From positions 224,001 to 288,000 of the forward strand of contig CAWBWI010000001.1 of NCBI GenBank assembly GCA_963792585.1: a stretch of 64,000 nt of DNA, given 5' to 3'. Positions 40,200 through 63,549 of this stretch are shown piece after piece. Source of the stretch: Candidatus Eiseniibacteriota bacterium (GTDB lineage: Bacteria > Eisenbacteria > RBG-16-71-46 > CAIMUX01 > VGJL01). Under the pieces are notes generated by a model. The model did no database searches and was not told where the DNA came from. It saw nothing but the letters and a program-made list of their open reading frames with translations. The first letter of the stretch is position 1; each line of letters starts with the position of its first letter. Made by a program: the position numbers and the translations under genes.

Positions 40200-40956
40200 G
40201 TCGACGGATCCATTACGGATTCCCGCGGGCCAGGGGTGCCTGAGCGTTCACCAGAAGGGTCCAGGTTCGCGGTAGGAGCGGGGAGCCGGACAAGCAAGCC
40301 ACGAGCTTATCGTGGCGAGAGCGGTGGACGGAGTCTCGGTGGTGCAGGCCATCGGGGCTCGCCGTTTGTCCCAACAACCGCGCAGAGTTACGACGACGTC
40401 GCTGCGAGCCCGACTCTCTGTTGCGAAACTGTATCGAGCGCGACCGGTGCGAACCGCCGCGAGATGGGGCGTGAGAGGGCGAAACTCTCGCTCTATGCGT
40501 TCTCTACCCGCCAGTGGTGAACGACGCGGTTCGCTCCGGGGTACCGGAGAGGACGCTTCACGAACTGGCGTTCTCCCGGTGAACGCCGATGGGATCCCGG
40601 CATGCGAGCAGGGTTACCAGAGCGCAGAGATCGCTGGAAACGGATCCAGAGATCACCCCAAGGGGGCCAAGGTTGAAACATCGGACACAGCCAAGAGGCG
40701 ACGCCACCAACGACCGGACGGTCACTATCCCGACCGAACTGGGATCTTCGAAACGCCCGAAACTGTAACCGCGGTCATGGGACGACGCTGTGAAATCCAC
40801 TTGTCGCGGATGTCCGGTCAATCTATAATACTCGCGCGATCGTGAACCTCGCTTCTGCGATCAGAGGCGGTGGCGGGGTAGGAGCTTGGATGACCCGGCC
40901 GCGCACAAGTCAATATCGCCCGCGGCTCGGTGGGTTGGTTGCAGGGGAGGGTGACC

Positions 40957-42474: not shown

Positions 42475-42801
42475 AATCGTCTCCAGACTGCCTCTCAGAC
42501 CACGGGATCTGGGCCCCTCCGGTGTCCGACCTACGTATCGCTTTACCGACCCCTCCTCCCACGCTACACTCAGACCCGCCTGGACCTCCTTCGTGCGTGC
42601 CCGAGGTGTCCACCTCGAACGAGATAACCCAGCCAGGCGAGGACGAAGAATGCGCCGCATGTGGCCGAAGCGATTTGGGTTGCTGACCGGTCCCGAGAGG
42701 GCCGGAAGAGCCGTGCCTCACCTTGCCGACCTGACCCGCCATGAACGGCGTCCATCCGCCATATCCTTGTCCAGGTCATCTACCGTTAGATTGGGTAGCC
42801 C

Positions 42802-43237: not shown

Positions 43238-43368
43238 ATCTAGAAACCGTATTCACCTGACGCGCTGGCCCGTCACGGCCCTGGCAGAGAAGCATAGAAG
43301 GTCAAACCATCACCTCGGGCTGCGAGGGCCGTGCAGGCCTCGGGACACGGGTGATGGGAACGTTATGC
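43238..43368 (+). repeat. attC-like site 1 (131 bp)
   Basis: Degenerate R'' ATCTAGA, ATTCACC...GGTGAT, perfect stem CACGGCCCT/AGGGCCGTG, R' GTTATGC. Confidence 0.72.
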
Positions 43369-44269: not shown

Positions 44270-44400
44270 GTATCAGTCTCGCATTCACTTGCCCGGCTGG
44301 TCCGTCACGGCCCCGGTAGGAGAACGCAAGAGGTTGAACGATCACCTCGGGCTGCTGGGGCCGCGGCGACGTCAGCTCGCAGATGATGCCAACGTTGGTC
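44270..44400 (+). repeat. attC-like site 2 (131 bp)
   Basis: Colinear with site 1 at offset 1032; shares ATCACCTCGGGCTGC exactly; R' GTTGGTC. Confidence 0.72.
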
Positions 44401-44416
44401 GGAACGGACGTGCTAC

Positions 44417-45193
44417 ATGAGGCGGAAGCTCTGGAGAGTTGGGAAGTTCGTGCTCGGTCTCTTGACGGCGGCCGTCGCGATAATTCAGATCGCGTCGTGG
44501 ATCGGCGCACCTCGCTCAAGTCTCGTAGCGGACGTCAGCTTTGCCCCGCTCACGCTCCCAGACGCCCTCGACAAGCAGATCAGGGGCTTTCGCGACCTAA
44601 CCAGTGATTCCGTTCTCGCCCGGGGGGTGACTCGCGAGTACCTGGACCCGAAACTGATTGAGCGATACGGTGCAGATTACGTAGCTCGGCTGACGGTTGC
44701 AGCGATCGCGCGCCAACTGTCGGACCGTCTCCCTTATGGACTCCCCGAGCCTTTCCGTGACTTCAGAGGAGTGTGGCGCGTGGCCGTGGAGAACCGAGGG
44801 CGACGCGCGGCGTCCGGCGTGCGCCTGCTTCTTCCGAACGCGATCTATGCTCGCATACGTCATGAAGACGGCACTGAGTCCGAGGGACCAACTTCCCCCC
44901 TGCTTTATCTCAACGACTTAGCTCCGAAGGAGATAATGGTTGTCGATGCCTGGACGGACATTGAACCAGGAGAATTCATTGCGAGATCCATCAGACTCAC
45001 GCACGACTCCGGACTTGGCAGAGTCCGCCTTTCGGTTCCAACCAGCGGGGCGTGGCACTGGCTCTCGGAAAACCCTGGAACAGCACTTTGGCTCGTCGCC
45101 AGCGTTTGCATGTTCCTCGTCTCTCTCTACTCTTTCTTTCGTACTGCAAGACCGAGCCAACCAACAGAGGCGAAGCATGCAGGAGCCGACTAG
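44417..45193 (+). CDS. Hypothetical membrane protein with N- and C-terminal TM helices (cassette 3)
   Basis: Two hydrophobic segments; stop codon overlaps the R'' box of the next repeat. Confidence 0.7.
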   Translation: MRRKLWRVGKFVLGLLTAAVAIIQIASWIGAPRSSLVADVSFAPLTLPDALDKQIRGFRDLTSDSVLARGVTREYLDPKLIERYGADYVARLTVAAIARQLSDRLPYGLPEPFRDFRGVWRVAVENRGRRAASGVRLLLPNAIYARIRHEDGTESEGPTSPLLYLNDLAPKEIMVVDAWTDIEPGEFIARSIRLTHDSGLGRVRLSVPTSGAWHWLSENPGTALWLVASVCMFLVSLYSFFRTARPSQPTEAKHAGAD

Positions 45194-45318
45194 CTGCCGC
45201 ATTCACCCTCCCGCGCTGGGCCGTCGCGGGCCCGGCAAGACAGCATACAAGCAGGATTATCCCCTGAAGTCGTCACGGACGCGCCGGACGCGATAGGCGA
45301 TAGTGGGAGCAGTGGATC
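45188..45318 (+). repeat. attC-like site 3 (right half degenerate)
   Basis: GACTAGC-TGCCGC-ATTCACC..CGCGCTGG.CCGTC matches the left arms of sites 1 and 2. Confidence 0.55.
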
Positions 45319-47044: not shown

Positions 47045-47405
47045 GCCCTCCTTGGGGCAGGTGGCGTTCGTGAGACAAGGACGGAGCGGGACGTAGAAAG
47101 GGTTTGATGGGGTGGTTCCCGACGAATGCGATTTCAGAAGGCTGGAGGAATGTCGGTTCGGGGGCAACCGTGAGAACATGCTAGCGGGCTGCCCTTCTGT
47201 AGATCCTGCGCATCGCGGTTCACTCACCGCATCGGTACATATCATCAGACAGCGGCCCGGCCGCAAAGCGGAGGGCGTTGTGGGTGTTGCGAAGGCAACC
47301 CTGAGGCGCGTTTTCGTGTTTTGCCCGCCGAATCGCAAGGCCCATGGGAACTACCGATCCGGGAAGGTTGCGCACCAGCATGGGCGGGCATATCCTGCGG
47401 TACTG

Positions 47406-47930
47406 ATGACCGCGAAGCCTCCCGACCGCTCGTCTCGGATGCTGGAAATCCTCAGACAAGCGAAGACCCTTGCCCGGGAGTACTACGCCCTTACAGGGCG
47501 GCCCCTGGGCATCACAGGGGAAGTGGCGGAGCTCGAAGCAGCGAGACTGCTCGGAGTCGAACTCGCGGATGTCCGGCAATCCGGATTCGATGCCATTCGG
47601 CGGTCCGGAGAAGGTGTCGTCAGGCTGCAGATCAAGGGGCGCTGCTACGGGCCTGATGCGAAGCCTGGCCAGCGGCTCGGGTCAATTCAGCTTGCGAAGG
47701 AGTGGGATGCCGTCCTCCTGGTGTTGCTCGATCTTGACTACGAGGCTCGCGAGATCTGGGAGGCGGATCGAAGATCAATCACCGAAGCACTCACGAAGCC
47801 TGGCTCCATCGCACGAAACCAACGAGGCGCGTTGGGCGTTCAGCAGTTCAAACGAATCGGCAGGCAGGTATGGAAGAGCGATGCGATCTCGGCGAATGAT
47901 CAAGCTTCAGGTGACGTGGGAGACATCTGA
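47406..47930 (+). CDS. DUF6998-like PD-(D/E)xK nuclease-fold protein
   Basis: YY.LTGRPLGITGEVAE..AA, GFDA, LQIKGR. Confidence 0.75.
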   Translation: MTAKPPDRSSRMLEILRQAKTLAREYYALTGRPLGITGEVAELEAARLLGVELADVRQSGFDAIRRSGEGVVRLQIKGRCYGPDAKPGQRLGSIQLAKEWDAVLLVLLDLDYEAREIWEADRRSITEALTKPGSIARNQRGALGVQQFKRIGRQVWKSDAISANDQASGDVGDI

Positions 47931-47989: not shown

Positions 47990-48992
47990 TTGCGCTTGCC
48001 CGACTACGTTCCACCCCATGCATTTGTTCTTGGAAGCGGCTTCTCCGCAAGCTTTGGGATCAAGACTCTCACGGGCCTCTTCGCTGCCGTTATGCAAGGC
48101 GAGGCTCGCGAAGGAGAGGAAGACGAAGCAGTCATCAATGGTGCGGTGGGAACCCTCTACCCCCACTTCCGACCAGAGCTTTCACCACCACATTATCCTC
48201 CCTTCGAGGAAATTCTACAGTCTCGTCGATTCTGCTATGGAGTTTGAGTTCCTGGACGCGGGCCACTGGGAAGACGTTCGTTTGAGATCCCTGAGACTCC
48301 TAACCGACTACTTGGCGTCGGCGGGCCAGGCGGGCGAGGGACATGAAGCGCTCCAAGCCTTTGTGAAGAAACTGCGACCAGGCGATGTTGTGATTACCTT
48401 CAATTGGGACAATCTGATCGAGAGAGCCCTCTACCTGCTCGGGACGGAGGTTTCTTTCACCGCCGATCCCGCGAAGATCACCGTGCTCAAGCTGCACGGG
48501 AGTATCAATTGGTTCGAACCTCCTTCGGGAACTGCTGCGAAGACCCCAGAACTTGTGGAGACACTCACCGAGGGGATACTCCGTACCAAGGACTATCGCT
48601 ATTACGATGTGTGGACGGGCTTGAATAGACCGCCACTGATTCTGCCCCCGGTGGCCTGGAAGCGAATTCGCTCCACGCCGTTCTTCGGAGCCCTTTGGAC
48701 GATGGCGGTGCGAGCCCTAGTTCGAGCGAGACAGGTGGCTTTCATTGGCTATTCGATTCCGCGTGACGATCTCCAAGCGCGCGCTCTCCTCACTACGGGA
48801 TGGGGGGCTCGTCGCATTGGTAGTATGGTCCAAGACCAGCCAACGCTCGAGTACACCCTCGTTGACCCTGAGCCGAGCATTTGTGGCAGGTACGCATCTC
48901 TGCTACAACCAACGGTGCGCTACATCCAGGCGGAGTTCAGCGCGGATTGCATTCCCCTGCTCTTCCATGAAGACGCTGTGGAAGCCTCATGA
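47990..48992 (+). CDS. SIR2-like domain protein; frameshift near 48213
   Basis: FVLGSGFS in the first frame; ITFNWD.LIE, LKLHGSINW and FIGYS...D in the second. Confidence 0.82.
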
Positions 48993-49028: not shown

Positions 49029-49526
49029 TCACGAGGGGCTTGATGGCTGCGTGCACCCTCCGGCCTTGGTCCTGCCGAGATGCGGCTGGAGGACTTGCTC
49101 CCACATTCTTGACTGCGTACTCCAGTCCACCTCGGCCACGATGCCTCGCAGGCTTCGCTCCGTGACGACATCGCGGCCTCCATGCACCTGGGGCATGAAC
49201 AGGATCGCCTCCTGGATGGATGGCGCGAGATCGAGTAGTGCCATGATCTGGGAGACCCGCGCCTTGCTAACGCCGCCGAGCCGGGCGATGTCCCCACATT
49301 CGCGGATGGCACCCTTTCGAATCATGCCATCGAAGTGGATCGCCAGCGCCATGAGGCGGGAGATGCGAGGGATGCGCCCCGGCTCGGCGGCCTTCGGCGG
49401 TTTGGGCGTCCCCGTGCGCATCCGTTTTCGACCACGGTTCCCACTCCGGAAGTGGACGTCGAACGTGACCGTCGGGCCCACGTGTGCGCCCGTGTGCGCG
49501 CCTGGGGCCACCTGTCGTGCCTTCAT
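49029..49526 (-). CDS. HTH protein coupled to the serine recombinase
   Basis: RLMALAIHF...IARLGGVSKARVSQIMALLDLAPSIQEAIL; 4-bp overlap with the recombinase stop. Confidence 0.8.
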   Translation of the reverse strand: MKARQVAPGAHTGAHVGPTVTFDVHFRSGNRGRKRMRTGTPKPPKAAEPGRIPRISRLMALAIHFDGMIRKGAIRECGDIARLGGVSKARVSQIMALLDLAPSIQEAILFMPQVHGGRDVVTERSLRGIVAEVDWSTQSRMWEQVLQPHLGRTKAGGCTQPSSPS

Positions 49527-51068
49527 CCCATCTCCTGCGCCAGGACCTTGATCCCGCCCGGCCGGAACGTCACGGAGACCGTCTCGCCCGCCCGGTCATA
49601 CGCCACGCGTTCCACGAGGAGGTGGACGACGCGGGCCTGTTCCCTCGGAGAGAGGGTGTCCCAGATCGGGTCGAAGCTCGCGAGTGCCGTCACCAGGTCC
49701 GCTTCGTCAAGCCGCTCGCGTTCCAGCGCGACTTGGTGGGTGCGAATCTCCGCGAGCCGCTGCTCTGCGGCGGTGGTCAGTTCCTGCAGTTCGGCCAGCC
49801 GGGCCGTGGACGTTGACGCACGCTTGGTCAATCCCACAAGTCGCTTCACATCAGTGGCGTGCCGTCTCAATTCCGATTCAATGCTGCGGCGATCCGAGGT
49901 CAGACGGTCAGCTTGCTCTTTGGTGGCGGCCTTCGCTTGTTTCAGCACCTCGGCCTGGAGCGTCGCGTCGGTACCGATCGCCCGAACGCGGTCGACCACG
50001 AATTTCTCGATCTCCCCCGCTGGAAGTGACTTCGTCGGGCAGGTGTCCCATCCCTGCTTCTGCGCCCGGCTGCAGACGTAGTACCGGTACCGGCGCTCGC
50101 CCCGCTGTGAGTAGGTGTGCGTCATCGCGGCATCGCAGGGTGCGCAGCGGAGGAGCCCCCGGAGCAGCGCCCCGTGCCGGTTTCGGGTCGCCCGTCCGCC
50201 CGATCGGCCGTTGTGTCGCAGGAGCCTCTGCACACGGCCCCAGACGGCCTCATCCACGATCGCCGCGTGCTCGCCGGGATAGACCGTGCCTCGGTGGTCG
50301 ACCTTCCCGACGTAGGTCGGACTCGTCAGCAGGTGGAAGAGGGTGTTCTTCTCGAACGGGGTGCCGCCTCGCGCCTTGCCCTTCTTGGTGACCCACGCCT
50401 TCGTCATCCAATGGCGACGATTCGCCTCCCGGAGGGTCTCCGTAAGAGACTCCTTCTCGAGGTACAGATCGAAGATCCCCCGGACCCGCTTGGCCTCGGC
50501 CTCGTTGACGACGATTCGTCCGCCCTTTGGGTCGACGTCGTAGCCGAGGACCGGGACGCCACCGACCCACTTGCCCTTCCGGCGAGCGGCGGACATCTTG
50601 TCCCGCGTTCTTTCCGCGATGATCTCGCGCTCGAACTGGGCGAAGGAGAGGAGCACGTTCTGCATCAGCCGGCCAGTGGAGGTCGACGTGTTGAACTGCT
50701 GGGTCACGCTCGACGAAAGAGACCCGGTGCTTGTCCAGGACCTCCATGATCCGGGCGAAATCGAGGAGCGACCGGGACAGCCGGTCGACCTTGTAGACAA
50801 CGACGCAGTCGATGCGCCCCGCCTCGACGTCGGCCATCAGCCGCCTCAGCGCGGGCCGGTCCATGTTCCCGCCCGTGAACCCACCGTCGTCGTAGGCGTC
50901 GGGCAGGCAGACCCAGCCTTCAAGCTTCTGGGATGCGATGTACGCTTCAGCCGCCTCCCGCTGGGCATCGAGGGAGTTGAACTCCTGGTCGAGCCCCTCC
51001 TCTGTGGATTTGCGGGTGTACACGGCGCAGCGGGTCGTGGTGGGCTTGGGGTCAGCGCGGCGGATCAT
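49523..51068 (-). CDS. Large serine recombinase (integrase); frameshift near 50710
   Basis: AVYTRKS catalytic Ser, [28 protein letters not shown]...ER, Zn ribbon CAPC...YYVC...C, coiled coil. Confidence 0.93.
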
Positions 51069-51544
51069 CGGGTGGCTCCCTTCGCCAGCCCGAAGAACAA
51101 CATCCCGTTCCAGTGACTGCCTGTCACCGCCTTAGCCACCGCCGTCAGCGACCGGTAGACCGCGCCCTCGTACTCGAAGCCATCGTCCAGCACGGTGACC
51201 GAGATCGTGCGACCCCGGTACTCGCGGGTCAGAACGGCACCGGGCATGGGCAGGCGGTGGTCGTGCGTCGGTTTGAAGGTCCCGACCACGGTGCGCCCCA
51301 CGCCAGCCCTGGGGGCGACCAGGCGCAGGTCGGACTCGTTCGCCAGTTCCTCCGCCCGGCGCAGTGCCCGCTCGCTCAGCCCGCCGTACTCGTTCGCCTG
51401 GAGCCTCCACGCGATGCGCTTGCGTAGGAAGTCCTTGTGGCGGGAGGTCGTCGGCTCACCGAATGCCGCTGCATATGCCCCCCGTAGCTCCACGACGGTC
51501 AAGTCCCGAAGTGCCTCGATCTGCTTGGCGATGGATTCCTTCAT
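51065..51544 (-). CDS. DUF2924 domain protein
   Basis: [10 protein letters not shown]...[44 protein letters not shown]. Confidence 0.92.
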
Positions 51545-51855
51545 CGTGCAGCCTCCTGGGGCGCGGATTCTCCGCCCGTTAACCCCTCGTTACACAAGGG
51601 CATCGGTCCGCCGGAACAGTCCAGAGGATTCTCGGTGAACGGGCGGGTCCTAAGGCGCTGGTAGCCTGCTGCCAGGATCGCGGCCGTCTCGGACAACCGT
51701 TGCTCGGGCGACATTTCCTCGGGGTCGTCAAGGAAGCTCGTGCATCGAGGTCTGCCACCACGACACGACACACCTGGACCACGCAGATTCTCCGCATGCG
51801 TCTCCGCCTGTGGCGGGGGACCCTCATCTTGTGTGCACGAGTCATCGCTAGCCAT
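51541..51855 (-). CDS. Small hypothetical protein (start uncertain, possibly 51714)
   Basis: PEEMSPEQRLSETAAILAAGYQRLR; stop overlaps the DUF2924 start. Confidence 0.5.
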   Translation of the reverse strand: MASDDSCTQDEGPPPQAETHAENLRGPGVSCRGGRPRCTSFLDDPEEMSPEQRLSETAAILAAGYQRLRTRPFTENPLDCSGGPMPLCNEGLTGGESAPQEAAR

Positions 51856-52058
51856 CTTGTATGTCCTCCAGAGGCGGTGCGCCGCCTACAGGAGGAACCT
51901 AGGTGACGAGAAAGAATCGATTCTTTTGTGGTAGGGGCGACCCGCGTGTTGGCCCCACGCGAGGGGGCGGCAGGGGGGACGGAGCGCCTCTCCAGTCGGT
52001 CGTCGTCGCCCTGGATCGGGGGAAGCAAAGGGCTATGTCGTTGGCCCAGACATCCAGA

Positions 52059-53378
52059 TTATCCCCAGAGCTTCGTGAGCGGGGGCAGCAATAGCTCCTT
52101 GCGCGTTGTCCTGAAGGTCGCCCGCATTTCGCTCAGAGACCGATATCTCCACTTCGGATGCTTGGCAACCCAGCGCTTGGCGACCTCTTCCCACGGGAAA
52201 GGCGCACCATCTTCCTCGATCTCTTCCCATGACTTTCCTACGAACTTGTCACGGTATTCCTCGACGAAGTCAAAGAGGCGGAGCCTTCGTTCCTCTACCA
52301 ACCTGAGTTGCCGGCTGCTGCTCATCCGTCGTGCGCTGTGGAAAGCGTTCAGCAGGGTCTCGTCCGTAATCCACGGCTCGAACTCCATGGTCACTATCAT
52401 CCGGCGATGATGGGGCGAGTGCAGGGCCGCGAAGTTCAGGTCAATGGGCAGTACCAAGGGGATTCTACCCTCAGTGAGAAAGAGAAAGGACTCCGTCTCC
52501 GTCCAGTGGTACGACGCAGCAATGTGTGACGCGACCCGCTGCATCTCCCCAAAGACGGAGCCCTCAATCACCCGCGCCGGCGACCACTGGAATACGTAAG
52601 ACGCGCGAAGACTCTTCGGAAGGTCATTGCGGCTGCGCACGGGGATTCTCACGGGCCTCCGCCGAGATCCTCCCACACTCCGGGCAGAGGAGAAGATGCC
52701 ATCAGGAGGCTGAGGCAGTTGGACGTACACGCCTCGCTCGGCGAATCCCGCTGCGAGTCGATTCAAATTCCTAAGGCGGCGCAAGTTGCCACCCCATTCA
52801 ACCCGGATCTCTGTTCCCTTTCCCCTCGGCCAAGCGACGTCCCCCTGGTTCCAGAAGTACGATGTGTGTTCCAGCAGGGGGACTCGATTCTTGACGAACC
52901 AATCGAGGGGAAAGTACCTCGGTGCGACTTGGAGCAAAAGGTGTTCGGCCTGATCGTGCGTGGGCACGTGACCACCGAACAGGGAGGTTCGCAGATCCTG
53001 GACTTCAGGCTCGCGAGATGCGAATCGGCCGAGTTCTCGTGAGAAGATCTTGGCCCGAAGCTTTTCAGGCGGAGTCAGCTTGGGCTGGTTCTTGGTGCCG
53101 CTCTTCTGGCCGACTCTCCGCCCCGGCATTGTCGTGCGAGCACTCCGTGCACGGCTGACGAGCATCCTGAATTGTGCCTTGCCTGAGTTCATCAAGTAGT
53201 CCCGGATTTCGCTATCCAACTCGTTCTCTTCGAGAGTCCTACTGTCACTCCTGGCGGCGCCAAGCTCGGCGACTAGCCGCCTTTCTACCGCCTCCCTGTT
53301 CGTGGGATAGCCGACTTCCATCCGATGCTCCTCCAGGATTGAAGTATCTGGATCCCGCATGCGGCCGTTCGATGACAC
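52059..53378 (-). CDS. Hypothetical protein divergent from alpA, possibly a regulator
   Basis: 439-aa ORF with a helical, basic C-terminus. Confidence 0.6.
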   Translation of the reverse strand: MSSNGRMRDPDTSILEEHRMEVGYPTNREAVERRLVAELGAARSDSRTLEENELDSEIRDYLMNSGKAQFRMLVSRARSARTTMPGRRVGQKSGTKNQPKLTPPEKLRAKIFSRELGRFASREPEVQDLRTSLFGGHVPTHDQAEHLLLQVAPRYFPLDWFVKNRVPLLEHTSYFWNQGDVAWPRGKGTEIRVEWGGNLRRLRNLNRLAAGFAERGVYVQLPQPPDGIFSSARSVGGSRRRPVRIPVRSRNDLPKSLRASYVFQWSPARVIEGSVFGEMQRVASHIAASYHWTETESFLFLTEGRIPLVLPIDLNFAALHSPHHRRMIVTMEFEPWITDETLLNAFHSARRMSSSRQLRLVEERRLRLFDFVEEYRDKFVGKSWEEIEEDGAPFPWEEVAKRWVAKHPKWRYRSLSEMRATFRTTRKELLLPPLTKLWG

Positions 53379-53562
53379 TGGAAACGACTATAGACCATGC
53401 ACCCGTCATTCGTCCGTCGGTTCCCTGTCGCCCGCCGCGGTCCGGAACGGGGTGCTCCGTGAACGGTGGTCCTTGACCGCCTGACACGAATGAATCGTTT
53501 CTTCCACGTCAGATAGGGTTCGCCATGTGGGGTCGAAGAACGCCCTGCATAGGAGAACGACC

Positions 53563-53799
53563 ATGACGACAGATCAACAGCTTCTAAGACCGGCCGATCT
53601 TGCTCCGCGATTGGGAGTATCCGTGAGCCGCGTCTACCAATTGATTTCCGCTGGCGTGTTGCCCCACGTGCGTGTCGCGGGCGCCATTCGAATCCCGCTG
53701 GTCGCGTGGGAACGGTGGCTCGCCAAGCAAGGAGATCGCGCGCTGCTGGCCGCCGAAGGCCGGCAAGGCCCGATGCAGGTGGAGGACAGCGAATCATGA
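53563..53799 (+). CDS. AlpA/excisionase-like HTH protein
   Basis: LLRPADLAPRLGVSVSRVYQLI..G.LP.VRV.G.IRIP; AGGAG RBS. Confidence 0.88.
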   Translation: MTTDQQLLRPADLAPRLGVSVSRVYQLISAGVLPHVRVAGAIRIPLVAWERWLAKQGDRALLAAEGRQGPMQVEDSES

Positions 53800-56700
53800 G
53801 TGTCCCCCGGGTCGTCGCGGATCCGAGTAGTCCGCGCGCGCGAAAGGGCAAGGGCAAGGGCAAGACGAAACGTCAACGGAAACGCCGGACTGCATCCGCA
53901 GCGGTTGCGGAAGGACGTGCGGACGCCGCAAACGATGTCCGGCCGGATGATGTTGCGGGAGCACAAGGCATCCCATCTGGGGACCAAGCGGTGAACCCTC
54001 CGGATGCACCGAATGCGGGCACAGCCGCGGACAGTGGAACTGCCCAGGAAGCAGTCAGCGCACAGGTCCTTCTGACCAATCACCAAAAGCTCATCGACGA
54101 TTCCGCGATCTCCCCCGAGGTAGCCGCAGAGCGAGGGTATCGATCGGTCACCTCGCGTGCCGAGCTTGGGCGGCTCGGCTTCGGAGACAAGCAGTGCCGT
54201 GTTCCAGCGCTGCTCCTGCCGATCTACGGCGTCAACGGAGAGATCGTCTTGTACCAGGCCAGGCCCGATATGCCTCGGGTCATGGATCGTGGGAAGGCCA
54301 TCAAGTACGAAACGCCACGTGGATCTCGGATGGTTCTTGATGTGCCGCCGAGGGTTCGCCCCATGCTCGCAGATCCAAAGCAACCGCTGTTCGTAACAGA
54401 GGGGATTCGGAAGGCCGATTCCGCGGCAAGCATCGGATTGGCCTGTGTTGCGCTGCTTGGAGTCTGGAACTGGCGGGGCACGAACGATGCGGGCGGAAAG
54501 GTGGCCCTGCCGGACTGGGAGTCGATAGCGCTCAATGATCGGGATGTGTACATCGTGTTCGACTCGGATGCGGTGACAAAACCAGAGGTCCAGTCGGCGC
54601 TCCGTCGCTTTGCACGATTTCTGATGAATCGCCAAGCCAAGGTCAAGATCGTGAGTCTGCCGTCTGAGCCAAACGGGACAAAGGTTGGCCTCGATGATTA
54701 CCTCGCTGCCGGCCATGGGATCGACGACCTCGTGCAGCACGCGAAGCTGGAACCCATCGGCAAGGAGACACGGGAAGATGCGGATTCTCTCTACGAGGAG
54801 TCCGAAGGCGGCCTGGTGTGGAACCGAATGACGTCAAATGGGCCGGTCTCCGTCAGGCTGACGAACTTCACGGCCAAGATTCTTGCGGATATCGGGCGAG
54901 ACGACGGGGTGGAGACGACTCGCATGTTTGAGGTTGAGGCGCGTCGTGGACCCCGAGTAACTCGATTCAGCGTGCCCGCCAGCCGCTTCTCGGCGATGAA
55001 CTGGCCAACGGAGCATCTGGGGGCAGAGGCTGTGATTTTCCCCGGCCAGAGTCTGCGAGACCACACCCGAGTCGCGATCCAGATCCTTTCGGGAGATGTC
55101 CCTCGGCGCACGGTCTTCACACACACCGGTTGGCGGACCGTTGACGATCGGCTCGTCTACCTCCACGGTGGAGGGGCAATTGGGCAAAATGGGCAAGTCC
55201 CTGGGGTAGAGGTCGAGCTTCCGGCATCGCTGCGGGGGATGGTCCTGCCTGACTCACCGGTTGGAGAAGGGCTCAAGGCGGCAGTGGTTGCTTCGTTGGA
55301 TCTCCTGCAGCTTGCTCCTGATCGCATATCCGTTCCCCTCATGGCGGCGACCTACCGAAGCGTTCTAGGCGGGACCGATTCGTCGCTCCATCTTTCCGGA
55401 CCGACGGGGGCCGGGAAGTCGGAGTTCGCTGCGCGGTGCATGCAGCACTTCGGGGCCGGGTTCAACCGAACGACCTTGCCGGGCTCATGGTCGTCGACGG
55501 GGAACTCCCTTGAAGTGTTGGCCTTCCTCGCGAAGGACGCGCTCTTGGTCGTTGACGACTTTTGCCCGACCGGCTCATCGACAGACGTCCAACGGACGCA
55601 CCGGGAAGCGGACCGCCTGCTCCGCGCCCAAGGCAACAACTCTGGCCGAGGTCGGCTCTCCTCGGACGGGACCCTCCGGGGCTCGCGGCCACCCCGAGGG
55701 ACGATAATCAGTACCGGGGAGGATGTTCCTCGGGGGCAGTCCCTGCGAGCACGCATGCTAATGATCGGAGTCGGTCCCAACGACATCGACTTCGATGTGC
55801 TGACGGGGGCGCAGAAGGCCGGCGAGAAAGGCATCTATGCTGCTGCGATGGCTGGCTACCTGAAGTGGCTAGCACCACGCTACGAGGCGATCCGGCGGTC
55901 CATGCCGGATGAGATCAATGCGATCCGTGCCGCAGCCTCCGTGAACGGCCAGCATCGCCGTGTGCCGAGTATTGTCGCCGACCTGTATTTCGGATTTCGC
56001 ACATTTGTGACGTTCGCTGTGGAAGTCGGCGCAATCTCAACCACGGTGGAGGATGCGCTTCTTGATCGGGCCTGGACTGCGTTTCTCGAAGTCGCACACG
56101 AACAGGCCGAGCACCAAGCCTCCGCAGAACCAACTGCCCGGTTCCTTGAGCTACTCCGGTCAGCGCTGGCAGCGGGCGCCGCCCACGTGGCGAGCTTCGA
56201 CGGTGCAGCGCCAGAGGATCCAGGGGCATGGGGCTGGCGGGAGCGCACCGTTGGCGCGGGGGCCAACGAGCGAGCAGAGTGGCACGCCCAAGGTCGGCGA
56301 GTCGGCTGGATCGACGATGTGGGTGTCTACCTCGACCGCGACTCCGCGTACCAGGCATGTCAAGCCGCGGCCGGTGGGGGAGAGGGATTGCCGATCTCGA
56401 TGGCTACCCTTACCAAGCGACTCCATGAACGAGGGCTGCTCGCGTCGACAGACGGGACACGGAAATCGCTCCTCGTCCGCCGCGTCATTGAGAATTCTCG
56501 GAGGAACGTCCTCCACATCGCCCGAGAGGCTGTCTACCCCTCTCACGAGTTGCCCAACTTGCCCACGACGATGGAAGCCCCCGCAAATGCTGAAGATGCG
56601 ACGGGCAACTCGTGTGGCGAGGGTCGCCCACCCGCCCACGGACTTGCCCAGGAACTTGCCCACGCTCGGCCCGCCGTGGGCAACTCGGTGGGCAATGGGG

Positions 56701-56924
56701 CAAATGGGGGCTCACGACTTGCCCAGAGCAACTGCCTGCCGAATCAGGAGTTGGAACCGGCTGGGCAAATTGGGCAAGAGGCACAACGGGGGGACGCGCC
56801 CGCTGAGAGTGGTGGGGGCAGGTCCGGATTGTCTTCAAAGGAATGCGTGAATCGAGATCTCGGATTGGAAGGGGGCAAAGCGCCAGCGCAGAGGTGGAAA
56901 GGCCAGGATGAACACTTCGACTAG
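53796..56924 (+). CDS. Primase-helicase: DUF3854 Toprim-like domain plus P-loop (DUF927-like) helicase
   Basis: KYETP, FVTEG.RKA, GVWNW, FDSD, KVGLDDYL; Walker A GPTGAGKS, Walker B LVVDDF, STGE; ATGA overlap with alpA. Confidence 0.87.
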   Translation: MSVPRVVADPSSPRARKGKGKGKTKRQRKRRTASAAVAEGRADAANDVRPDDVAGAQGIPSGDQAVNPPDAPNAGTAADSGTAQEAVSAQVLLTNHQKLIDDSAISPEVAAERGYRSVTSRAELGRLGFGDKQCRVPALLLPIYGVNGEIVLYQARPDMPRVMDRGKAIKYETPRGSRMVLDVPPRVRPMLADPKQPLFVTEGIRKADSAASIGLACVALLGVWNWRGTNDAGGKVALPDWESIALNDRDVYIVFDSDAVTKPEVQSALRRFARFLMNRQAKVKIVSLPSEPNGTKVGLDDYLAAGHGIDDLVQHAKLEPIGKETREDADSLYEESEGGLVWNRMTSNGPVSVRLTNFTAKILADIGRDDGVETTRMFEVEARRGPRVTRFSVPASRFSAMNWPTEHLGAEAVIFPGQSLRDHTRVAIQILSGDVPRRTVFTHTGWRTVDDRLVYLHGGGAIGQNGQVPGVEVELPASLRGMVLPDSPVGEGLKAAVVASLDLLQLAPDRISVPLMAATYRSVLGGTDSSLHLSGPTGAGKSEFAARCMQHFGAGFNRTTLPGSWSSTGNSLEVLAFLAKDALLVVDDFCPTGSSTDVQRTHREADRLLRAQGNNSGRGRLSSDGTLRGSRPPRGTIISTGEDVPRGQSLRARMLMIGVGPNDIDFDVLTGAQKAGEKGIYAAAMAGYLKWLAPRYEAIRRSMPDEINAIRAAASVNGQHRRVPSIVADLYFGFRTFVTFAVEVGAISTTVEDALLDRAWTAFLEVAHEQAEHQASAEPTARFLELLRSALAAGAAHVASFDGAAPEDPGAWGWRERTVGAGANERAEWHAQGRRVGWIDDVGVYLDRDSAYQACQAAAGGGEGLPISMATLTKRLHERGLLASTDGTRKSLLVRRVIENSRRNVLHIAREAVYPSHELPNLPTTMEAPANAEDATGNSCGEGRPPAHGLAQELAHARPAVGNSVGNGANGGSRLAQSNCLPNQELEPAGQIGQEAQRGDAPAESGGGRSGLSSKECVNRDLGLEGGKAPAQRWKGQDEHFD
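56550..56777. repeat. Iteron array, putative replication origin: 9 exact TTGCCCA/TGGGCAA copies
   Basis: Forward at 56550, 56559, 56644, 56656, 56719; reverse at 56677, 56689, 56762, 56771. Confidence 0.75.
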
Positions 56925-57039
56925 GGACAATCCGATCTCGGCCGGCCGGACGTGTGCGGCGATGGCTGAGGCTGCGGTGGGACACGCGACAACCCCAGGC
57001 GATCGCTCGCCGGGGCTGTCCGTGCCTTCGTGGCGTGAT

Positions 57040-57462
57040 CTACTTCCGGCTAGCCTGCACCCCGTCGACGATCTCCTGGATGGCCTTCATGTCCCCACGG
57101 GCTCCCGCGAGGACGATGGCCTTCACGAACTTCGATGCCTTGGCGGACCCGGTGGCCTCGTGCAGCTCCAGGCGTTCAGACCTCAACAAGCGGAATGCGA
57201 ATACAACCGTGTCCTGCGAGTCGTCCGGCTGCGTCGGGGCGGCGCTGGTCGTCGCGCGCTTGGTCGGCTTGGCAGGGGCCTTCGCAGTCTCGGGCGTCGC
57301 TTCGTCGCCGACGATCACCGCCGTGGGCTTCTCCTTCGGCGCTCCGGTCACCGGCGTCGGTCTGGGCTTGGCGATGGTGTGGATCCGACCGCCCTGCGGT
57401 TCCTCGTGGCTCTGGCCACCCTTCTTCTTGTCGGCGGCCTTCTCAGTCTTCTTCGTGCTCAT
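57040..57462 (-). CDS. Hypothetical protein, disordered N-terminus, possible ribbon-helix-helix-like C-terminus
   Basis: AGGAG RBS; VVFAFRL..SER..LH. Confidence 0.7.
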   Translation of the reverse strand: MSTKKTEKAADKKKGGQSHEEPQGGRIHTIAKPRPTPVTGAPKEKPTAVIVGDEATPETAKAPAKPTKRATTSAAPTQPDDSQDTVVFAFRLLRSERLELHEATGSAKASKFVKAIVLAGARGDMKAIQEIVDGVQASRK

Positions 57463-57498
57463 GGCGTCTCCTTCTGGCCCGGGTCTCTGCCCGGCCGG

Positions 57499-57867
57499 TT
57501 AGGGGTTCAGGGAACAGATCAACGCATCGACGGGCCCCGCGTAGGGGTCGTCCTTCCTCTTGCATGTGGTCTGGAGCACCCTCTTCAAGGCAGTGAACTT
57601 CGCGGCGTGCTCGGCGACGTCCCGGATCAAGCTCGTGCTCATGATCGTGTCGTAGACGCTCGGCATCCCGTGGGTCTCGTTCTTTCGGACCTCGTCGGCG
57701 AGGTTCCTGGCGAGCCACTCGAGCTTCTCGGTGTAGGCCTCGTACTGCGCGATCGCATCGGCCAGGACCCACGTGCGTGCGTCGTCGCGGGCCTCGGGAT
57801 GGGTGCGCAGCAGCTCACTGACCTGCTCGCGGGTGATCACGACCTTCTGAATCGTCGTCTCGTTCAT
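57499..57867 (-). CDS. Hypothetical protein
   Basis: GAGGAGG RBS; member of a small-gene operon. Confidence 0.7.
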   Translation of the reverse strand: MNETTIQKVVITREQVSELLRTHPEARDDARTWVLADAIAQYEAYTEKLEWLARNLADEVRKNETHGMPSVYDTIMSTSLIRDVAEHAAKFTALKRVLQTTCKRKDDPYAGPVDALICSLNP

Positions 57868-57879
57868 CGTCGCCCTCCT

Positions 57880-58110
57880 CTACAGCCCGTACGACGCGGC
57901 CACGCGGGCCACGACCTCGGGTTTGCATCCACGGATCTCTTCGACGGCGTCCATCGTGAGGCGTGTGAACCGCCGGCGATCCAGCCCGTCCAGCGTCCCC
58001 ACGTAGACACGCATGAACGCTTCGATGTGGCGGGGCTCGATTCCGGTGATCCCCTTGCGATCAAGGATCCCGCGGATCGTCTCTTGGTAGGTTGGGATGG
58101 GATTCATCAT
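57880..58110 (-). CDS. Hypothetical protein
   Basis: GGAGGAG RBS; PRHIEAFMR...GTLDGL. Confidence 0.7.
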   Translation of the reverse strand: MMNPIPTYQETIRGILDRKGITGIEPRHIEAFMRVYVGTLDGLDRRRFTRLTMDAVEEIRGCKPEVVARVAASYGL

Positions 58111-58119
58111 CTCCTCCGG

Positions 58120-58353
58120 TTACCGACTCTGGTTCGAGAGGAACGTGATCGTGGCCGCGAGCCCACCCTCGCCGTTGTCGCAGGTGATCAACTCATCGAT
58201 CGCGACGGCGTAGCGAAGGAAGTCGCCCTTACCCTGCGCCCAGGTCGAGGCGTCTGCGGCCTCCCTCAAGAGCGCGGCGGCCTTCACCAGCATCATGGAT
58301 GCCCGGTAGGCCTTGCGGATCGCCCTCGGGTCGGTGGTGGCGTTCTGGTTCAT
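58120..58353 (-). CDS. Hypothetical protein
   Basis: AGGAG..GAGG RBS then ATG at 58353. Confidence 0.65.
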   Translation of the reverse strand: MNQNATTDPRAIRKAYRASMMLVKAAALLREAADASTWAQGKGDFLRYAVAIDELITCDNGEGGLAATITFLSNQSR

Positions 58354-58453
58354 CCTCGTTCTCCTGTTCACGGGTGCGTGATCGCCCCCGCAATGCAATA
58401 CACGCGCTGCTTGCGCGGGAACATCCAGCGGAAGTTGCAGAGAAAGGTGGGGA

Positions 58454-59553
58454 ATGCTGATGGCACGCACGAGGTCGCGCAAGCTGGCGCTGTGGTCCGC
58501 GCTTCCTCCGTACCTGGGTGGGAAACGTCGCCTGTGCTCCGCTGATCTTCCGCGAGGTGGACCGGATCCTGCCAAGGGCGCGATGGCGTGGCATGACGTT
58601 CCTGGACGGGTTCCTGGGCGGTGGGTCCGTCTCCCTCTACGCGAAGGCCCAGGGCTTCCGCGTGATAGCCACAGATATCGCCGAGCGATCGATCGTAGTC
58701 GGGCAGGCCCTGATCGAGAACAGCCGCGTGCGCCTGACGCGCGAGGATGTGCTCCGAATCGCAGCACCTAGTGACGACCCGCCTGGCCGGATCGAACGGG
58801 ATTACGCACCCAACACGTTCACGGGCGCACAGGCGCGTCTTCTCGACCGGGCCCTAGCCTTGGCCGCAGAGACACCCGATCCCGCCAAGGCGGCGCTCTT
58901 CCGCCTCCTCGCGATCCGCGTGGCGCTGCTCGCGCATCCGATGTCGCAGGTTCGCGCCGGCACGATCCACCGCCTGTCGACGGGGGAGTACGAGTCGATC
59001 ACCGAGTCGTGCCTCTACCACTACGTGGATGGGATGCGTCTCACGCGGCCTGAGAAGCTCTGGGAGCTTGCGTGGCAGATCAACGCGGGAGTCTTCGAGG
59101 GCAAGGCCACCGTGATCAAGGCGAGCGTGCTTGATCGACTGCCCGAGATCGAGGCCGACGTCGCGTACTTCGATCCGCCGTACCCGGGCGTCATGTCCTA
59201 CGAGAAGGAATACAAGGTCATCGACGAGATCCTGGAAGGGCAGTCGCGGCCCACGAGCCCGTTCACCGCCCGGGATGGAGCCGAGATGCTGGACACCCTC
59301 TTCGAGCGCGCGCAGCACATCCCGGTGTGGCTGCTCTCGCTGGGCAACGCGGTGGTGGGGATCGACGACCTGGAAGCCAAGATGACCCGCTTCGGTCGGC
59401 AGACCCGAGCGATCGAGATCAAGTACAAGCACCTGCCTGCAGTCGCGACGGCGGAGAAGAACCGAGACGAACCGGGAGTTCCTGGTCGTGGGGTGGGACG
59501 CGCGAACGGTCTGTCGAATCACGATGCCGCGAGTTCTGAGGCGGCGGCGATAG
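58454..59553 (+). CDS. DNA adenine methyltransferase, Dam/D12-like; frameshifts near 58537 and 59465
   Basis: PYLGGKRRL, DGFLGGGSVS, YFDPPY; C-terminal NREFLVV in the shifted frame. Confidence 0.87.
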
Positions 59554-59565
59554 GAGGGACGACGC

Positions 59566-60263
59566 ATGAATGACGAGACGAGGACCCTGCCCGCGAGAGA
59601 AGCAGCATCGGCGCCTGCATGATGCCGCTCGATGATCTGATCCCGCATCCGTTGAACGCGAATGTGATGTCCGAGGATCTGCGTGAGAAGCTTCGCGTCA
59701 ACATCCAGCGCACAGGGCGGTACCCGTTCATCGTCGTTCGGCCGCATCCCAAGGAGCCGGGGAAGTTCGAGATCCTGGATGGGCACCACCGGGTCTCGGT
59801 GCTGCGGGACCTCGGACATACGGAAGCGCGCTGCGACGTCTGGGATCTATCGGACCGGGAGGCGAAGTTGCTCCTCGCCACGCTGAACCGCCTCGAGGGC
59901 CAGGACCAGCCCATCCGCCGTGCGCAGTTGCTCCACGAACTCCTCGGTGAGATGAGCCTCGATGACCTGGCTGGCCTCCTGCCCGAGACCGATCGCCAGC
60001 TCGAGGAACTGCACGCGCTCCTGGAGTTCCCAGCAGAGGAGATCGCGGCCCTCCTCGATGAGGCAGCCGAGCAGGAGGAGAAGGTGCTGCCTCGCGTCAT
60101 GTCCTTCGTCGTCACTCCCGAGCAGGAGGAGTTGATCGAGCAGGCGGTGGAACTGGCAAGCGACGGTACCGCCGGTCGCGACCGCAAGGCTCGCGGTCTC
60201 GCCAACCTCGCCCAGCACTACATGGAGGATCGAGATGAGACGATCGCTCGCCAAGACGCGTGA
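59566..60263 (+). CDS. ParB/Srx N-terminal domain protein; frameshift before 59619
   Basis: LDDLIPHPLNAN.M, PFIVVR, EILDGHHR, LNRLEG; GGAGGG RBS before ATG 59566. Confidence 0.85.
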
Positions 60264-60808
60264 GGAGGCTCGCCGGCTCTATCTGACGAGCGAGCTGCAG
60301 ACCAACGCCGAGATCGCCAAGCGCCTGGGGGTGAAGCCCCATACCGTGGGCCGCTGGCGAAGCGATGAGGACTGGGATTCCCTGCGCTTGAAGATCGATC
60401 ACAACGCCTCCGAGATGTTCGCCGAGAAGATCGCCACGGATCGGGTCACGCTGAACGTCCGTCACTACCGGATGTGGGAGCTGCTCGTCGCGAAGCTGGC
60501 GGATGAGTTGAAGGCCAAGCAGGGGATCCCCATCCGGGAGCTGGAGACGGATCTCAGGCATCCTCGACCGAGCACAGAAGGGTCAGCGCCTGGCCAAGGG
60601 GCTCTCGATCAACGGGGAGACAGAGGAAGCCATCCGGGCGCAGCTGGAGTCGGAGAAGCGCCATCTGATCGACGTGTTCATTGATGTGATCAAGGAGAAC
60701 GTGGATGACGAGGAATCTCGGGAGCGCATTCGGCAGGCGATCCTCCGAGCCCTACCTGCGGAGGAGGACGCGGGAGCTGGCGAGCCCGACCCGGCGCTCG
60801 TTCACTGA
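60235..60808 (+). CDS. Putative terminase small subunit (N-terminal HTH); frameshift near 60550
   Basis: REEARRLYL....EIAKRLGV...TV.RW...EDW; directly upstream of TerL. Confidence 0.7.
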
Positions 60809-62388
60809 CCCCCTGGCGCAATGGGCGCTCCGCAAGATCCGCCTGGACGGCGTCCCCTTCTCCTTCAAGGGACACGAGTACCTGAGGGCGATCTACGACG
60901 ACACCTCGCCGCATGTGGTGCTCTCCAAGGCCGCCCAGATCGGGGGGACCACCTGGGCGATCCTCCGGAGCATCCATGCCTGCCTGCACGGGACTGGACG
61001 TCATCTACTTCTTCCCGACCCGGACGGATGTGCTCGAGTTCTCGAAGTCCCGCGTGGGCCCCATGCTGGCTGAGAATCCGTTCCTCCACCGGCTCATGAC
61101 GGATACGGACACGGCGGGTCTGAAGCGGATCGGGGATTCCTATCTCTACCTCCGGGGGATGCAGTCCAGCGTGGGGATGAAGTCCGTGCCGGCCGACATG
61201 GTCGTCTTCGATGAGCTGGACGAGACCTCTCCCGCGGCCAAGGCCATGGCGAAGGAGCGCCTGGCGCACTCGGAGTACAAGCGGGTGATCGAGCTATCCA
61301 ACCCCTCCTTGCCCGATTACGGGATCGACGAGCAGTACCAGAAGTCGGACCAGCGGCACTGGACCTTGCGCTGCCCCAATTGTGCCCATTGGACAGCCCT
61401 TGATAAGGAGTTCCCCGTCAAGTTGGGCGAGGAGGTCCGCATCATCCAGCCACGGAGCGACGGGACGTTCTACAGGGCCTGTCCCGAGTGCGCCGCCGAA
61501 CTGGACCTCGCAGCGGGGGAGTGGGTGGCCGACTTCCCCAGCCGACCGATCCATGGCTACCGGATCTCGCAGCTCTTCTCATCCACGGTGGACCCGGGGG
61601 AGATCCTGACCGAGTACCGGACGACCCGCTTCCCCGACCGCTTCTACAACCTCAAGATCGGGATCCCGTGGGCGGACTTAGGGAGGCGTCTCGATGCTCC
61701 CGCGGTGCTCTCGCTCTGCGGCGAGACGCTGATGGCCGAGTCATTCGTCGAGCCGTGCGTCATGGGGGTCGACACGGGCCGGGACCTGCACGTGGTCATC
61801 CTGCGGGCTGGGGGAGAGGGTGAGCCACGGCGCTTGATCCACCTGGCCGTCTGCCAGGAATTCGAGGACCTGGATAGCTTGATGGCCCGCTTCCACGTCG
61901 AGCGCTGCGTGATCGATGGGCTGCCCGAGACCCACGCGACGCGGGAGTTCACGCGCCGGCACATGGGAAAGGTCTTCATGAACTTCTTCAACGAGCACCA
62001 GCGAGGCTCCCCGAACTGGGACCACGGTTCCATGATGGTCCAGGTCAACCGCACCGAGGCGCTGGACGCATCCCGTGCGGCCGTCCGGGACCGCAGGCTC
62101 GTCCTGCCCCGCGCCTCTGCGCTGGTCGAGGAGTTTGCGAGGCACATGGCCTGCGATGCGAAGGTCCTGGAAGAGGATGAGGAGACCGGGATCCAGCGCT
62201 ATCGCTACGTGCGGACGGGCGTGAACCACTTCTCGATGGCGTTCACGTACGCATGGCTGGCCGGAATCGATCGGCCGGCGGGGCGCTTCACGACCATCGA
62301 CCTGCGGCGGGTCCCGAGCGAATCCGACCTCGTGGACCACCTGACGCCGCGTCTTGCCGATCTGCTGAACGTCCGTCTAACAGGGTAG
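60705..62388 (+). CDS. Terminase large subunit, lambda GpA-like; frameshift near 60990
   Basis: KAAQIGGT Walker A variant, IYFFPT, VVFDELD, SNP, SDQR.W..CPNC...CPEC, nuclease MGVD..IDG..NH. Confidence 0.88.
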
Positions 62389-62964
62389 GAGCCGCAGGCG
62401 TTCCTTGAGTTCCTCATCAGATACATGGGTGTAGATCACGGTCGTCAGCGGGCTCGCATGGCGTGCGAAGCGCTGGGCGAGGAAGAGGTCGCGGGAGGCC
62501 CGGTAGACGTTGGTGACGGCCGTGTGGCGCAGGGTATGGAAGCAGTAGAGCCGATCGAAGCCGGCCCGTTCCTGCCACTCCCGGAACAGCACCTGGACAC
62601 GCCGCGGGGAGATCCGACGCCGGGAGAGGCCGCAGAAGAGGGGTGCATGCGGATCGAGGCTCTCCCCGTGCGTCGATCTTGTAGCACCAGAAGGCGGTGA
62701 GCTTGGGCTCCAGCGCATCGGGCAGGAACACGTCGCCCGACACGGCCTCGCTTCGCGATCTCGGGGCGGACCGCACCCGCAACTCGCGGCTGGCCGTTGG
62801 GGAAGAAGAGGTCGCCGACGACAAGACCGATCAGCTCGCCGAGCCGCAAGTCCGGTACCGAGGGCGAGTGAGAAGATGACGTGGTCGCGGGGATGGTCGG
62901 CAGTTGCACGGAGCAGGGCCTGCAGCTCGTCGGCGGTCAGGCTCTGTGGGCTCAGATGTGGCAT
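62377..62964 (-). CDS. Compact tyrosine recombinase, catalytic domain only; several indels at 62670-62855
   Basis: RD..IF..ALGTGLR..EL, AK, FHTLRHT, FARH....TT.IYTH; GGAGG RBS. Confidence 0.88.
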   Translation of the reverse strand: MPHLSPQSLTADELQALLRATADHPRDHVIFSLALGTGLAARRADRSCRRRPLLPQRPAASCGCGPPRDREARPCRATCSCPMRWSPSSPPSGATRSTHGESLDPHAPLFCGLSRRRISPRRVQVLFREWQERAGFDRLYCFHTLRHTAVTNVYRASRDLFLAQRFARHASPLTTVIYTHVSDEELKERLRLLPC

Positions 62965-63027
62965 GGGGCACCTCCAGTGCTCCAAGGGTCGCGCTCTCCG
63001 GCAACGAATCAAGGGAAGTTCAGCCCG

Positions 63028-63497
63028 TAATGGGCATCGATCGGCGGAGCGAGCAAGCCTCGTCGGCACGCCCCGATTTGCGGCATCGGGTCTCGGGAAC
63101 GGGGCGATTTCGCGGCATGCCCATTACAGAAGGGGGCGATTCTGCGGCATGGGGGTCTGAGAATGGGGCGAGTTATGGGCATCGGAATCGGCGAATCCCC
63201 ATGGGGCAGAGGCGTGCAGGCACAGGCGCGTGATTTCGTAACCCTTTGAACCATCGCAGGCAAGGTATGTGACGCCTGCCCATAACCGCCCCGAGGTGTG
63301 CGAATTCAGGCCTGGAAACTGCCCATATGCTGCCCCGAATGCCCCAGTTGTGCCCCAACGGCGTTCCGGACCACCCAGAACGCCGCCGTTCTGCCCATTA
63401 GAAGGGACGTCGTCCTTCAATGGAAAGACGACGTGATTGTATAACACGTAATGTCTATCACATCACGATGGCACAACGGAAGCATGCCTATACAATC
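63028..63497. repeat. Repeat-rich noncoding site: 6x TGCCCATWW plus inverted repeats
   Basis: TGCCCA cores at 63031(r), 63118, 63176(r), 63277, 63320, 63392; inverted repeats 63407-63434 and 63435/63497. Confidence 0.6.
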
Positions 63498-63549
63498 CTG
63501 TGACAAGCAAGGGATGACGAGTCTCAACGTCCAAGCGAGTGAAGAATGG

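Follow-up and report, generated by a model that had tools for sequence, protein, structure and literature searches.

Introduction

Phage-inducible chromosomal islands (PICIs) carry TerS only, while TerL is a core gene of the capsid-forming PICIs (cf-PICIs), where it stands along with head genes, according to the accessible parts of PMC10085698. VEIMEs (PMC9618062), PICI-like tycheposons (10.1101/2020.12.28.424599) and EPIPs (PMC12822802) are also integrative and carry a primase or helicase, AlpA and sometimes TerS; in the parts of these sources open to us just the small terminase is named, and for VEIMEs TerL is expected from the helper. Here we analyze an element in a 64,000-nucleotide stretch of a Candidatus Eiseniibacteriota genome (the window, C1:224001–288000 of the 2.0-Mb contig C1; the genome is 84% complete). 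The element encodes both TerS and TerL, with no portal gene behind them. It belongs to a family of mobile elements that is widespread, in integrated form, among uncultivated bacteria, and we consider it fairly likely to be a phage satellite that has a terminase of its own and relies on the proheads of a helper.

With PICIs and the Staphylococcus aureus pathogenicity islands (SaPIs), as far as the accessible text of PMC10085698 describes them, the element shares an integrase, a primase-replicase, accessory defence genes and the lack of tail or lysis genes, and probably also an AlpA-type regulator and TerS. It differs from them in having TerL as well as TerS and no capsid-modifying gene, in a serine integrase with DUF2924, a fixed module of methyltransferase (MTase) and ParB, a small tyrosine recombinase (YR) and a terL-linked cis site, and in hosts that belong to uncultivated phyla. 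Of the features that define a PICI, the integrase (a large serine recombinase, LSR) and the primase-replicase (DUF3854 plus DUF927) are present; a capsid morphogenesis gene is not, and instead of reliance on a helper TerL there is an own TerL under selection. With the cf-PICIs of the same source it has in common TerS and TerL of its own on a PICI-like backbone, but no clade locus tested contains a portal, capsid, protease or head-tail connector gene, and its TerL is of the phrog_675 family. The element is a member of neither group. Serine integrases occur in EPIPs as well (PMC12822802, accessible parts), yet the small terminase subunit named for EPIPs, VEIMEs and tycheposons sets these apart from an element with TerL. 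No description of satellites with TerS and TerL but no portal was found in the literature covered, supplements and most subscription papers lying outside it. An earlier note on this DNA, made from the sequence alone, had suggested that it may be an undescribed satellite class; that part of the note is supported, while the borrowing of helper procapsids that it also proposed is an inference. The family is real and widespread, and apparently undescribed.

Results

Relatives of the terminase were collected with the intact TerL of a second copy of the element, in the same genome, as the query. Nineteen loci lie in GTDB genomes of Ca. Eisenbacteria, Planctomycetota, Acidobacteriota and Armatimonadia, the metagenome relatives are the best 80 of 233, and the IMG/VR relatives are the best 80 of 163. 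Within the phylum of the window TerL is present in 21 of 206 genomes, several of them with more than one copy. Removal of duplicates (50 of 238 loci) left 188 loci, which were split into 119 at 55% identity or above (the clade, including five frameshifted or partial, lower-scoring loci placed by hand) and 69 more distant ones (the outgroup). L193 is grouped as outgroup by the 55% cut yet lies inside the clade; with less than 1.5 kb downstream it has no effect on the portal counts.

The 64 portal and capsid probes, drawn from the distant loci, revealed a portal in none of the 41 clade loci that have 3 kb or more of sequence downstream, as against 34 of 46 outgroup loci (29 without self-hits). 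At 9 kb or more the counts are 0 of 24 and 20 of 23. The earlier note had remarked that no portal follows TerL in the window; the same holds for each of these 41 close homologues, and neither a portal nor a capsid gene appears in the next 56 kb of the contig (to C1:344000). Because the portal probes come from the outgroup, clade open reading frames (ORFs) were also scanned against PHROGs. Two scans of downstream clade ORFs (65 and 49) matched no head, portal or tail family, with 15 of 85 downstream ORFs omitted from the first and, from the second, 10 of the 59 ORFs of the clade and 31 of the 63 of the outgroup, while outgroup ORFs matched many portal families. Five profile hidden Markov models (HMMs) from outgroup portals and capsid detected 2–12 outgroup loci each and nothing in the genome of the window or in clade loci. 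Probes and HMMs were empty over spans of 56–95 kb in five other genomes (six spans, one with a gap), and the five HMMs over 60 kb in a further genome. PF05136, PF04860, PF05065 and PF03864 have no match in the genome of the window, where controls were detected, and the PF04860 portal occurs anywhere in the genome in 1 of the 21 TerL carriers. The closest outgroup portal type is found in 0 of the 206 genomes of the phylum, a set without a positive control, and a phrog_3753 scan of five genomes gave no match with its controls likewise silent.

In a tree of 127 TerL sequences and 478 columns the clade is monophyletic (72 tips, FastTree support 0.97) and nested among portal-linked phage TerL. Its sister is one phage-like sequence in three records (L221–L223), with no portal within 10 kb; in these records terL is followed by helicase and replication genes, and long repetitive proteins are encoded upstream. 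Tailed phages with a phrog_675 TerL are the source lineage of the clade and have the same TerL family, fold and ATPase motifs, but they carry portals and capsids and are without the clade's ParB, YR and cis site. TerL identity is 36–48% to IMG/VR phages and 25–28% to Herelleviridae and to Vibrio phages of 82–85 kb.

Purifying selection acts on TerL, TerS, ParB and MTase. By the Nei-Gojobori method on disjoint nearest pairs, the median dN/dS is 0.19 for TerL (35 pairs), 0.18 for TerS (37), 0.12 for ParB (24), 0.14 for MTase (15) and 0.16 for YR (15). Residues K62, Q65, D156, E157, D344, D394 and four zinc cysteines of TerL are invariant in 71 of 71 proteins, which covers Walker A, Walker B, the coupling motif, the zinc cysteines and the first two nuclease aspartates. 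A structure model of the intact TerL of the second copy matches TerL structures across both domains; a sequence search of the PDB returned no terminase. The C-terminal tails of TerL are highly variable; in lambda this tail sets prohead specificity. The gene upstream of TerL is a probable TerS, whose position, helix-turn-helix (HTH) and helical architecture fit, with weak fold matches to annotated TerS and none in the PDB.

Around this core some parts are fixed and others are exchanged. TerS lies upstream of TerL in 85 of 86 loci, MTase is present in 39 of 39 and ParB in 34 of 39, and a convergent YR comes after TerL in 22 of 41, sometimes beyond kilobases of cargo. The replicases vary among copies (PrimPol-D5, PrimPol-DUF3987, DUF927, CHC2, DnaB, AEP), and the LSR module is found in both orientations. 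The cargo is rich in defence genes, with matches to restriction-modification, DarTG, TIR, dCTPase, QatC and SIR2. Units also occur in tandem: a repeating array of LSR, terL, cargo and YR is found in one genome (G048, L342–L345), successive YR genes of one tandem array are 19 and 35 kb apart where the core in the window measures about 14 kb, and two element copies 50.7 kb apart share one IMG/VR record (L064 and L207). Two loci, L021 and L087, are fragmentary. In L021 (15421–19136) a RIT-like element of three recombinases is inserted within the small YR gene.

The sequence shared between elements stops at a conserved 30-bp palindrome, some 500 bp upstream of YR. The palindrome and its repeats form a site of roughly 450 bp behind TerL, with or without a YR. 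Searched with a profile of 15 clade sites, 26 of 54 clade loci (training sites included) and 0 of 54 outgroup loci have the site downstream. A palindromic cut site beside phased binding repeats resembles lambda cos, and the repeat-plus-palindrome site is a candidate packaging site. It is found together with different replicases and is therefore unlikely to be a replication origin. An IHF-like site in the repeat array was considered and is unsupported, with 0 strict matches in the window and 5 of 21 loosely. A degenerate palindrome pattern matched none of 206 genomes and also missed the genome of the window, and is uninformative. Weaker second copies of the palindrome, at 30–46 bp, 0.9 kb or 4.5 kb from the first, are seen in L008, L062, L135, L160 and L199; in two cases other sequence lies between, which could mark cargo capture by the small YR.

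The genome of the window contains four GpA_ATPase genes. Besides that in the window, one belongs to the second copy (C1:1919481–1933042), which is 81–84% identical in nucleotides over the integrase and packaging modules, has a different middle and keeps TerL intact. The remaining two are lambda-type TerL in portal-less elements of the same plan, with three to four small genes in common. One of these (L011/L012, C1:1316924–1352772) is a complete element of 35.8 kb between 48-bp tRNA-Arg repeats, again with no portal; it encodes a YR integrase, AlpA, an AAA_25 helicase, two ParB, a PAPS-reductase-like protein, GNAT, DUF3560, TerS and TerL, and its cargo is Druantia/DISARM-like. The other (L009/L010, C2:366097–403555, about 37 kb, at tRNA-Met) has an LSR, a DUF3987 helicase, ParB-MTase, TerS and TerL, the same small genes as the window element at 52–87% identity, and a type IIG enzyme with 79% DNA identity to one downstream of the window. 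In this lambda-type lineage 0 of 12 loci at 54% identity or above show a head-tail or portal gene, with at most 1.5 kb downstream in view, a test shallower than that of the phrog_675 clade and with 17 of 55 ORFs omitted from its scan; two loci at 47% do have one.

Discussion

The reading that we favor, a satellite that packages itself with its own motor into borrowed heads, draws together gene content, missing head genes, monophyly, purifying selection, exchangeable replicases and defence cargo. By analogy with the PICI-like layout, helper infection would relieve the AlpA-type control, the LSR would excise the element, and the primase-helicase would replicate it from the iterons. TerS may then bind the phased repeats behind terL, and TerL may cut at or near the palindrome, dock on the helper portal and fill the head. 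The MTase would protect the DNA in the next host, and the small YR could resolve multimers or rearrange cargo. Headful packaging of concatemers fits better than a strict unit length, because the unit lengths differ (about 14, 19 and 35 kb).

Several observations weigh against this reading. No helper, excised circle, attP or packaged DNA has been seen, and the att sites of the window copy were not found, the sole flanking direct repeat being the family B repeat described below. In the one IMG/VR record viewed end to end, of 17.6 kb, a terminal repeat is missing and flanking genes are present. About half of the clade loci are without a detectable site, and the training set of the profile consisted of clade loci; an LSR is upstream in only 10–11 of the 25 loci with 9 kb in view, the second copy has no recognisable primase, and genes of the window copy are frameshifted in the assembly. 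In some genuine phages with a phrog_675 TerL, terL and the portal gene are separated (L301 and the sister L221–L223), so that missing adjacency of terL and portal alone is not decisive. Lastly, the final nuclease helix of clade TerL reads [DN]H[FY]S[LMF]: a second His, present in 51 of 55 outgroup proteins, is found in 0 of 72 clade proteins, and 120 database homologues yielded 114 readable motifs that all lack it as well; Asp497 is changed to Asn in 35 of the 72.

This change of the helix is one ground for supposing that the terminase has been repurposed, either for DNA processing in another transfer route or as an interference or defence module, in which a TerL with intact ATPase and weakened nuclease would occupy phage portals or cut phage concatemers. 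The position of the second His probably corresponds to D403 of SPP1, judging by motif spacing and secondary structure; the profile alignment to lambda-type GpA ended just short of the last nuclease motif. Mutation of D403 in SPP1 TerL strongly reduces cleavage, according to the accessible part of PMC3592435. In cultured phages of the wider family this position holds C or Q, and in a plasmid-borne homologue of Leptospira M. Since working phages tolerate such non-ligand residues, the objection is weakened and a nuclease-dead TerL, at first suggested by the lost His, was downgraded; the loss does not show a dead nuclease, though it may sustain the interference explanation. The defence-rich cargo suits that explanation, and satellite-encoded inhibition of packaging exists in the form of PLE Gpi (10.1101/2024.04.22.590561, accessible part), yet a pure inhibitor would need neither the cognate TerS nor the linked cis site, both of which are kept, and the lambda-type lineage retains a complete NEALD nuclease motif. 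We regard repurposing as unlikely, if deserving of attention. Quite improbable is a division of labor in which a split or bipartite phage has the element as one of its segments, or in which the element depends on a head-tail cluster that the host encodes elsewhere in the genome, like that of a gene transfer agent. TerL can indeed lie far from the portal in this family, and metagenome-assembled genomes (MAGs) are incomplete, that of the window included, but the four Pfam families without match in it, the single PF04860 carrier among 21 and the empty search for the closest outgroup portal type all speak against it. The alternative of the earlier note, a truncated prophage, is strongly disfavored by the portal-less TerL clade, purifying selection and the many replicase and integrase backbones. 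We hold decay with independent losses of morphogenesis genes to be very improbable indeed, even though TerL descends from a phage TerL, the window copy is frameshifted and L021 and L087 are fragments. The loci fall into one clade and all share an endpoint after terL, dN/dS is far below 1 and no head-gene remnants are seen, and the breaks are insertions only, without stop codons. Head or tail genes of a prophage were found neither at the locus nor elsewhere in the genome with the four Pfam families and the five HMMs of our own, and the relaxed selection and ragged gene loss of a remnant are not observed.

A further doubt concerns only the packaging site and is compatible with a satellite life style: the palindrome and arrays may be the site of the small YR, with a cer-like 11+8+11 core and accessory repeats, while the terminase recognises another site. 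A YR core site would suit the geometry just as well, YR is present in 17 of 21 TerL genomes and in 5 of 185 others, and in L154 the site is upstream of YR and apart from TerL. On the other hand, in 16 of 60 loci the site stands directly behind TerL with no YR next to it, and among 17 YR genes without TerL in the neighborhood a single one, at a contig end, has it upstream; the site therefore tracks TerL better than YR. A YR site is a real contender, yet on the doubtful side.

Described satellites either redirect the helper motor via TerS or build a whole head, whereas a satellite with its own terminase would supply the motor without the head. If so, a foreign TerL can dock on the portal of another phage, and natural variants become available for testing portal-terminase specificity. 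Such a satellite would further account for a frequent kind of "defective prophage" in MAGs, present in 21 of the phylum's 206 genomes, and for one way in which defence islands spread. Where terminase is used as a hallmark of viruses such elements are filed as phage; the clade makes up 10 of the best 80 IMG/VR matches (of 163). A broader proposal, for which we see an even chance, is that "terminase-autonomous" satellites stand between PICIs and cf-PICIs. With their own TerS, TerL and cos- or pac-like site, they would fill helper proheads without the helper motor, swap terminase modules to change helper, have arisen at least twice (phrog_675 and lambda GpA types) on a shared backbone, and carry defence cargo of tens of kb among uncultivated phyla.

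Layout of the element and its genomic surroundings

Gene identities were assigned by Pfam and PHROG profile searches of the window ORFs (Table 1). The layout given in the earlier note was borne out: Pfam recognises the LSR with DUF2924, and the gene divergent from an alpA-like gene, the primase-helicase and iterons, the four small genes and the MTase-ParB-TerS-TerL operon all lie where it had placed them. The convergent YR that it reported to overlap the TerL stop does so by 12 nt (stops at 62386–62388 and 62377–62379).

Table 1. Features of the element and its left flank, in window positions.
Feature	Position	Strand	Remark
Family B repeat, conserved, non-coding	47212..47317	+	Upstream of the orf104-DUF2924-LSR operon in three other copies (L008, L096, L282); possible left-end marker
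DUF6998 / methyl-directed restriction enzyme-like gene, probable cargo	47409..47930	+	Pfam 1.8e-5; PADLOC mREase_II 1.9e-40
SIR2-like gene, probable cargo	48018..48992	+	Pfam SIR2_2 7e-7
Small gene	49029..49526	-	phrog_14161 'recombinase'; follows LSR in many relatives
LSR (Resolvase, Recombinase, Zn ribbon)	49523..51068	-	One single-base insertion near 50706
DUF2924	51065..51544	-	Pfam 1.7e-43
orf104, small gene	51541..51855	-	Heads the DUF2924-LSR operon; homologues in L008, L096, L282
orf439, 439 aa, no known family	52059..53378	-	Divergent from alpA; homologues beside alpA in L020, L096, L127
AlpA/excisionase-like HTH regulator	53527..53799	+	HTH_17 4.6e-9; phrog_66
Primase-helicase, DUF3854 + weak DUF927 match	53706..56924	+	PHROG 'DNA primase'; true start probably near 53991
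Iteron-like array, TTGCCCA x9	56550..56777		Direct and inverted sets; ~230 bp at 3′ end of primase gene
Four small genes (140, 122, 76, 77 aa), family not assigned	57040..58353	-	Without Pfam or PHROG match
D12-class adenine MTase	58454..59573	+	Single-base insertions near 58536 and 59460
ParB-like protein	59619..60263	+	phrog_723 7.9e-15 (PHROG match only)
Probable TerS	60235..60808	+	N-terminal HTH + long helices; insertion near 60546
TerL, GpA_ATPase type	60744..62388	+	phrog_675, E 6e-91; insertion near 60984
TerL motifs	60924 (Walker A); 61201 (Walker B); 61762, 61909, 62224 (nuclease)		
Small YR, ~194 aa, Phage_integrase	62377..62964	-	Convergent on TerL; insertions near 62670 and 62844
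Repeat arrays	63030..63400		ATGCC(G/C)C/A at 32-bp period, then inverted TGCC cluster at ~11-bp period
Conserved palindrome, 30 bp	63406..63435		9-bp arms + 12-nt centre; candidate terminase cutting/pac site or recombination site

Compared with intact relatives, the genes for LSR, MTase, TerS, TerL and YR are each interrupted by single-base insertions, and where the sequences align no stop codon falls in frame. In a housekeeping stretch of the same assembly, 50 of the 323 called genes overlap a neighbor on the same strand by more than 60 nt; because overlapping gene calls are common there, the insertions are likely assembly or sequencing errors. The AlpA-like gene matches HTH_17 and phrog_66 and not the Pfam family Phage_AlpA. 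DUF3854 we take to be Toprim-like. TTGCCCA occurs 18 times in the window against 4.3 expected, a count reached by 0 of 100 shuffles, and the iteron-like array is likely a replication origin. Homologues of the four small minus-strand genes occur in the second copy and next to another terminase. An ESM Atlas search with orf439 and the 122-aa gene gave no explanation, the nearest clusters of orf439 being unnamed.

The low-GC island extends past the window to about C1:319500. Beyond the window it contains a type IIG restriction-modification enzyme, a TIR protein, secreted FlgD/PKD proteins and transposases; a PHROG scan of this part gave no head, portal or tail match. A 2-kb gene region is found at both ends of the island with 95% identity (window 40782–42766 and C1:313880–315871), and an LSR-linked orf165 fragment lies at C1:318538. 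The family B repeat brackets the window copy (with C1:317429–317603, 46.2 kb) and the second copy (C1:1933031–1933250 and 1885864–1886039, 47.2 kb), spacings that are suggestively close to a phage genome length. Further family B repeats lie at C1:1793838, C1:1927859, C3:661778 and C4:277022. The repeat has no Rfam match, the Rfam scan giving just one tRNA. Among 55 loci scanned, a tRNA was present in 3 and no partner repeat was found.

Elsewhere in this genome a chromosomal integron (C6:619016–667800) consists of an IntI-like gene and then dozens of attC-like 120-bp repeats with TAAC...GTTAG ends. Degenerate attC-like copies, in arrays without an integrase, also lie by the LSR end of both copies of the element (window 43247–43364, 44280–44396 and 45190–45287; C1:1934614–1940835).

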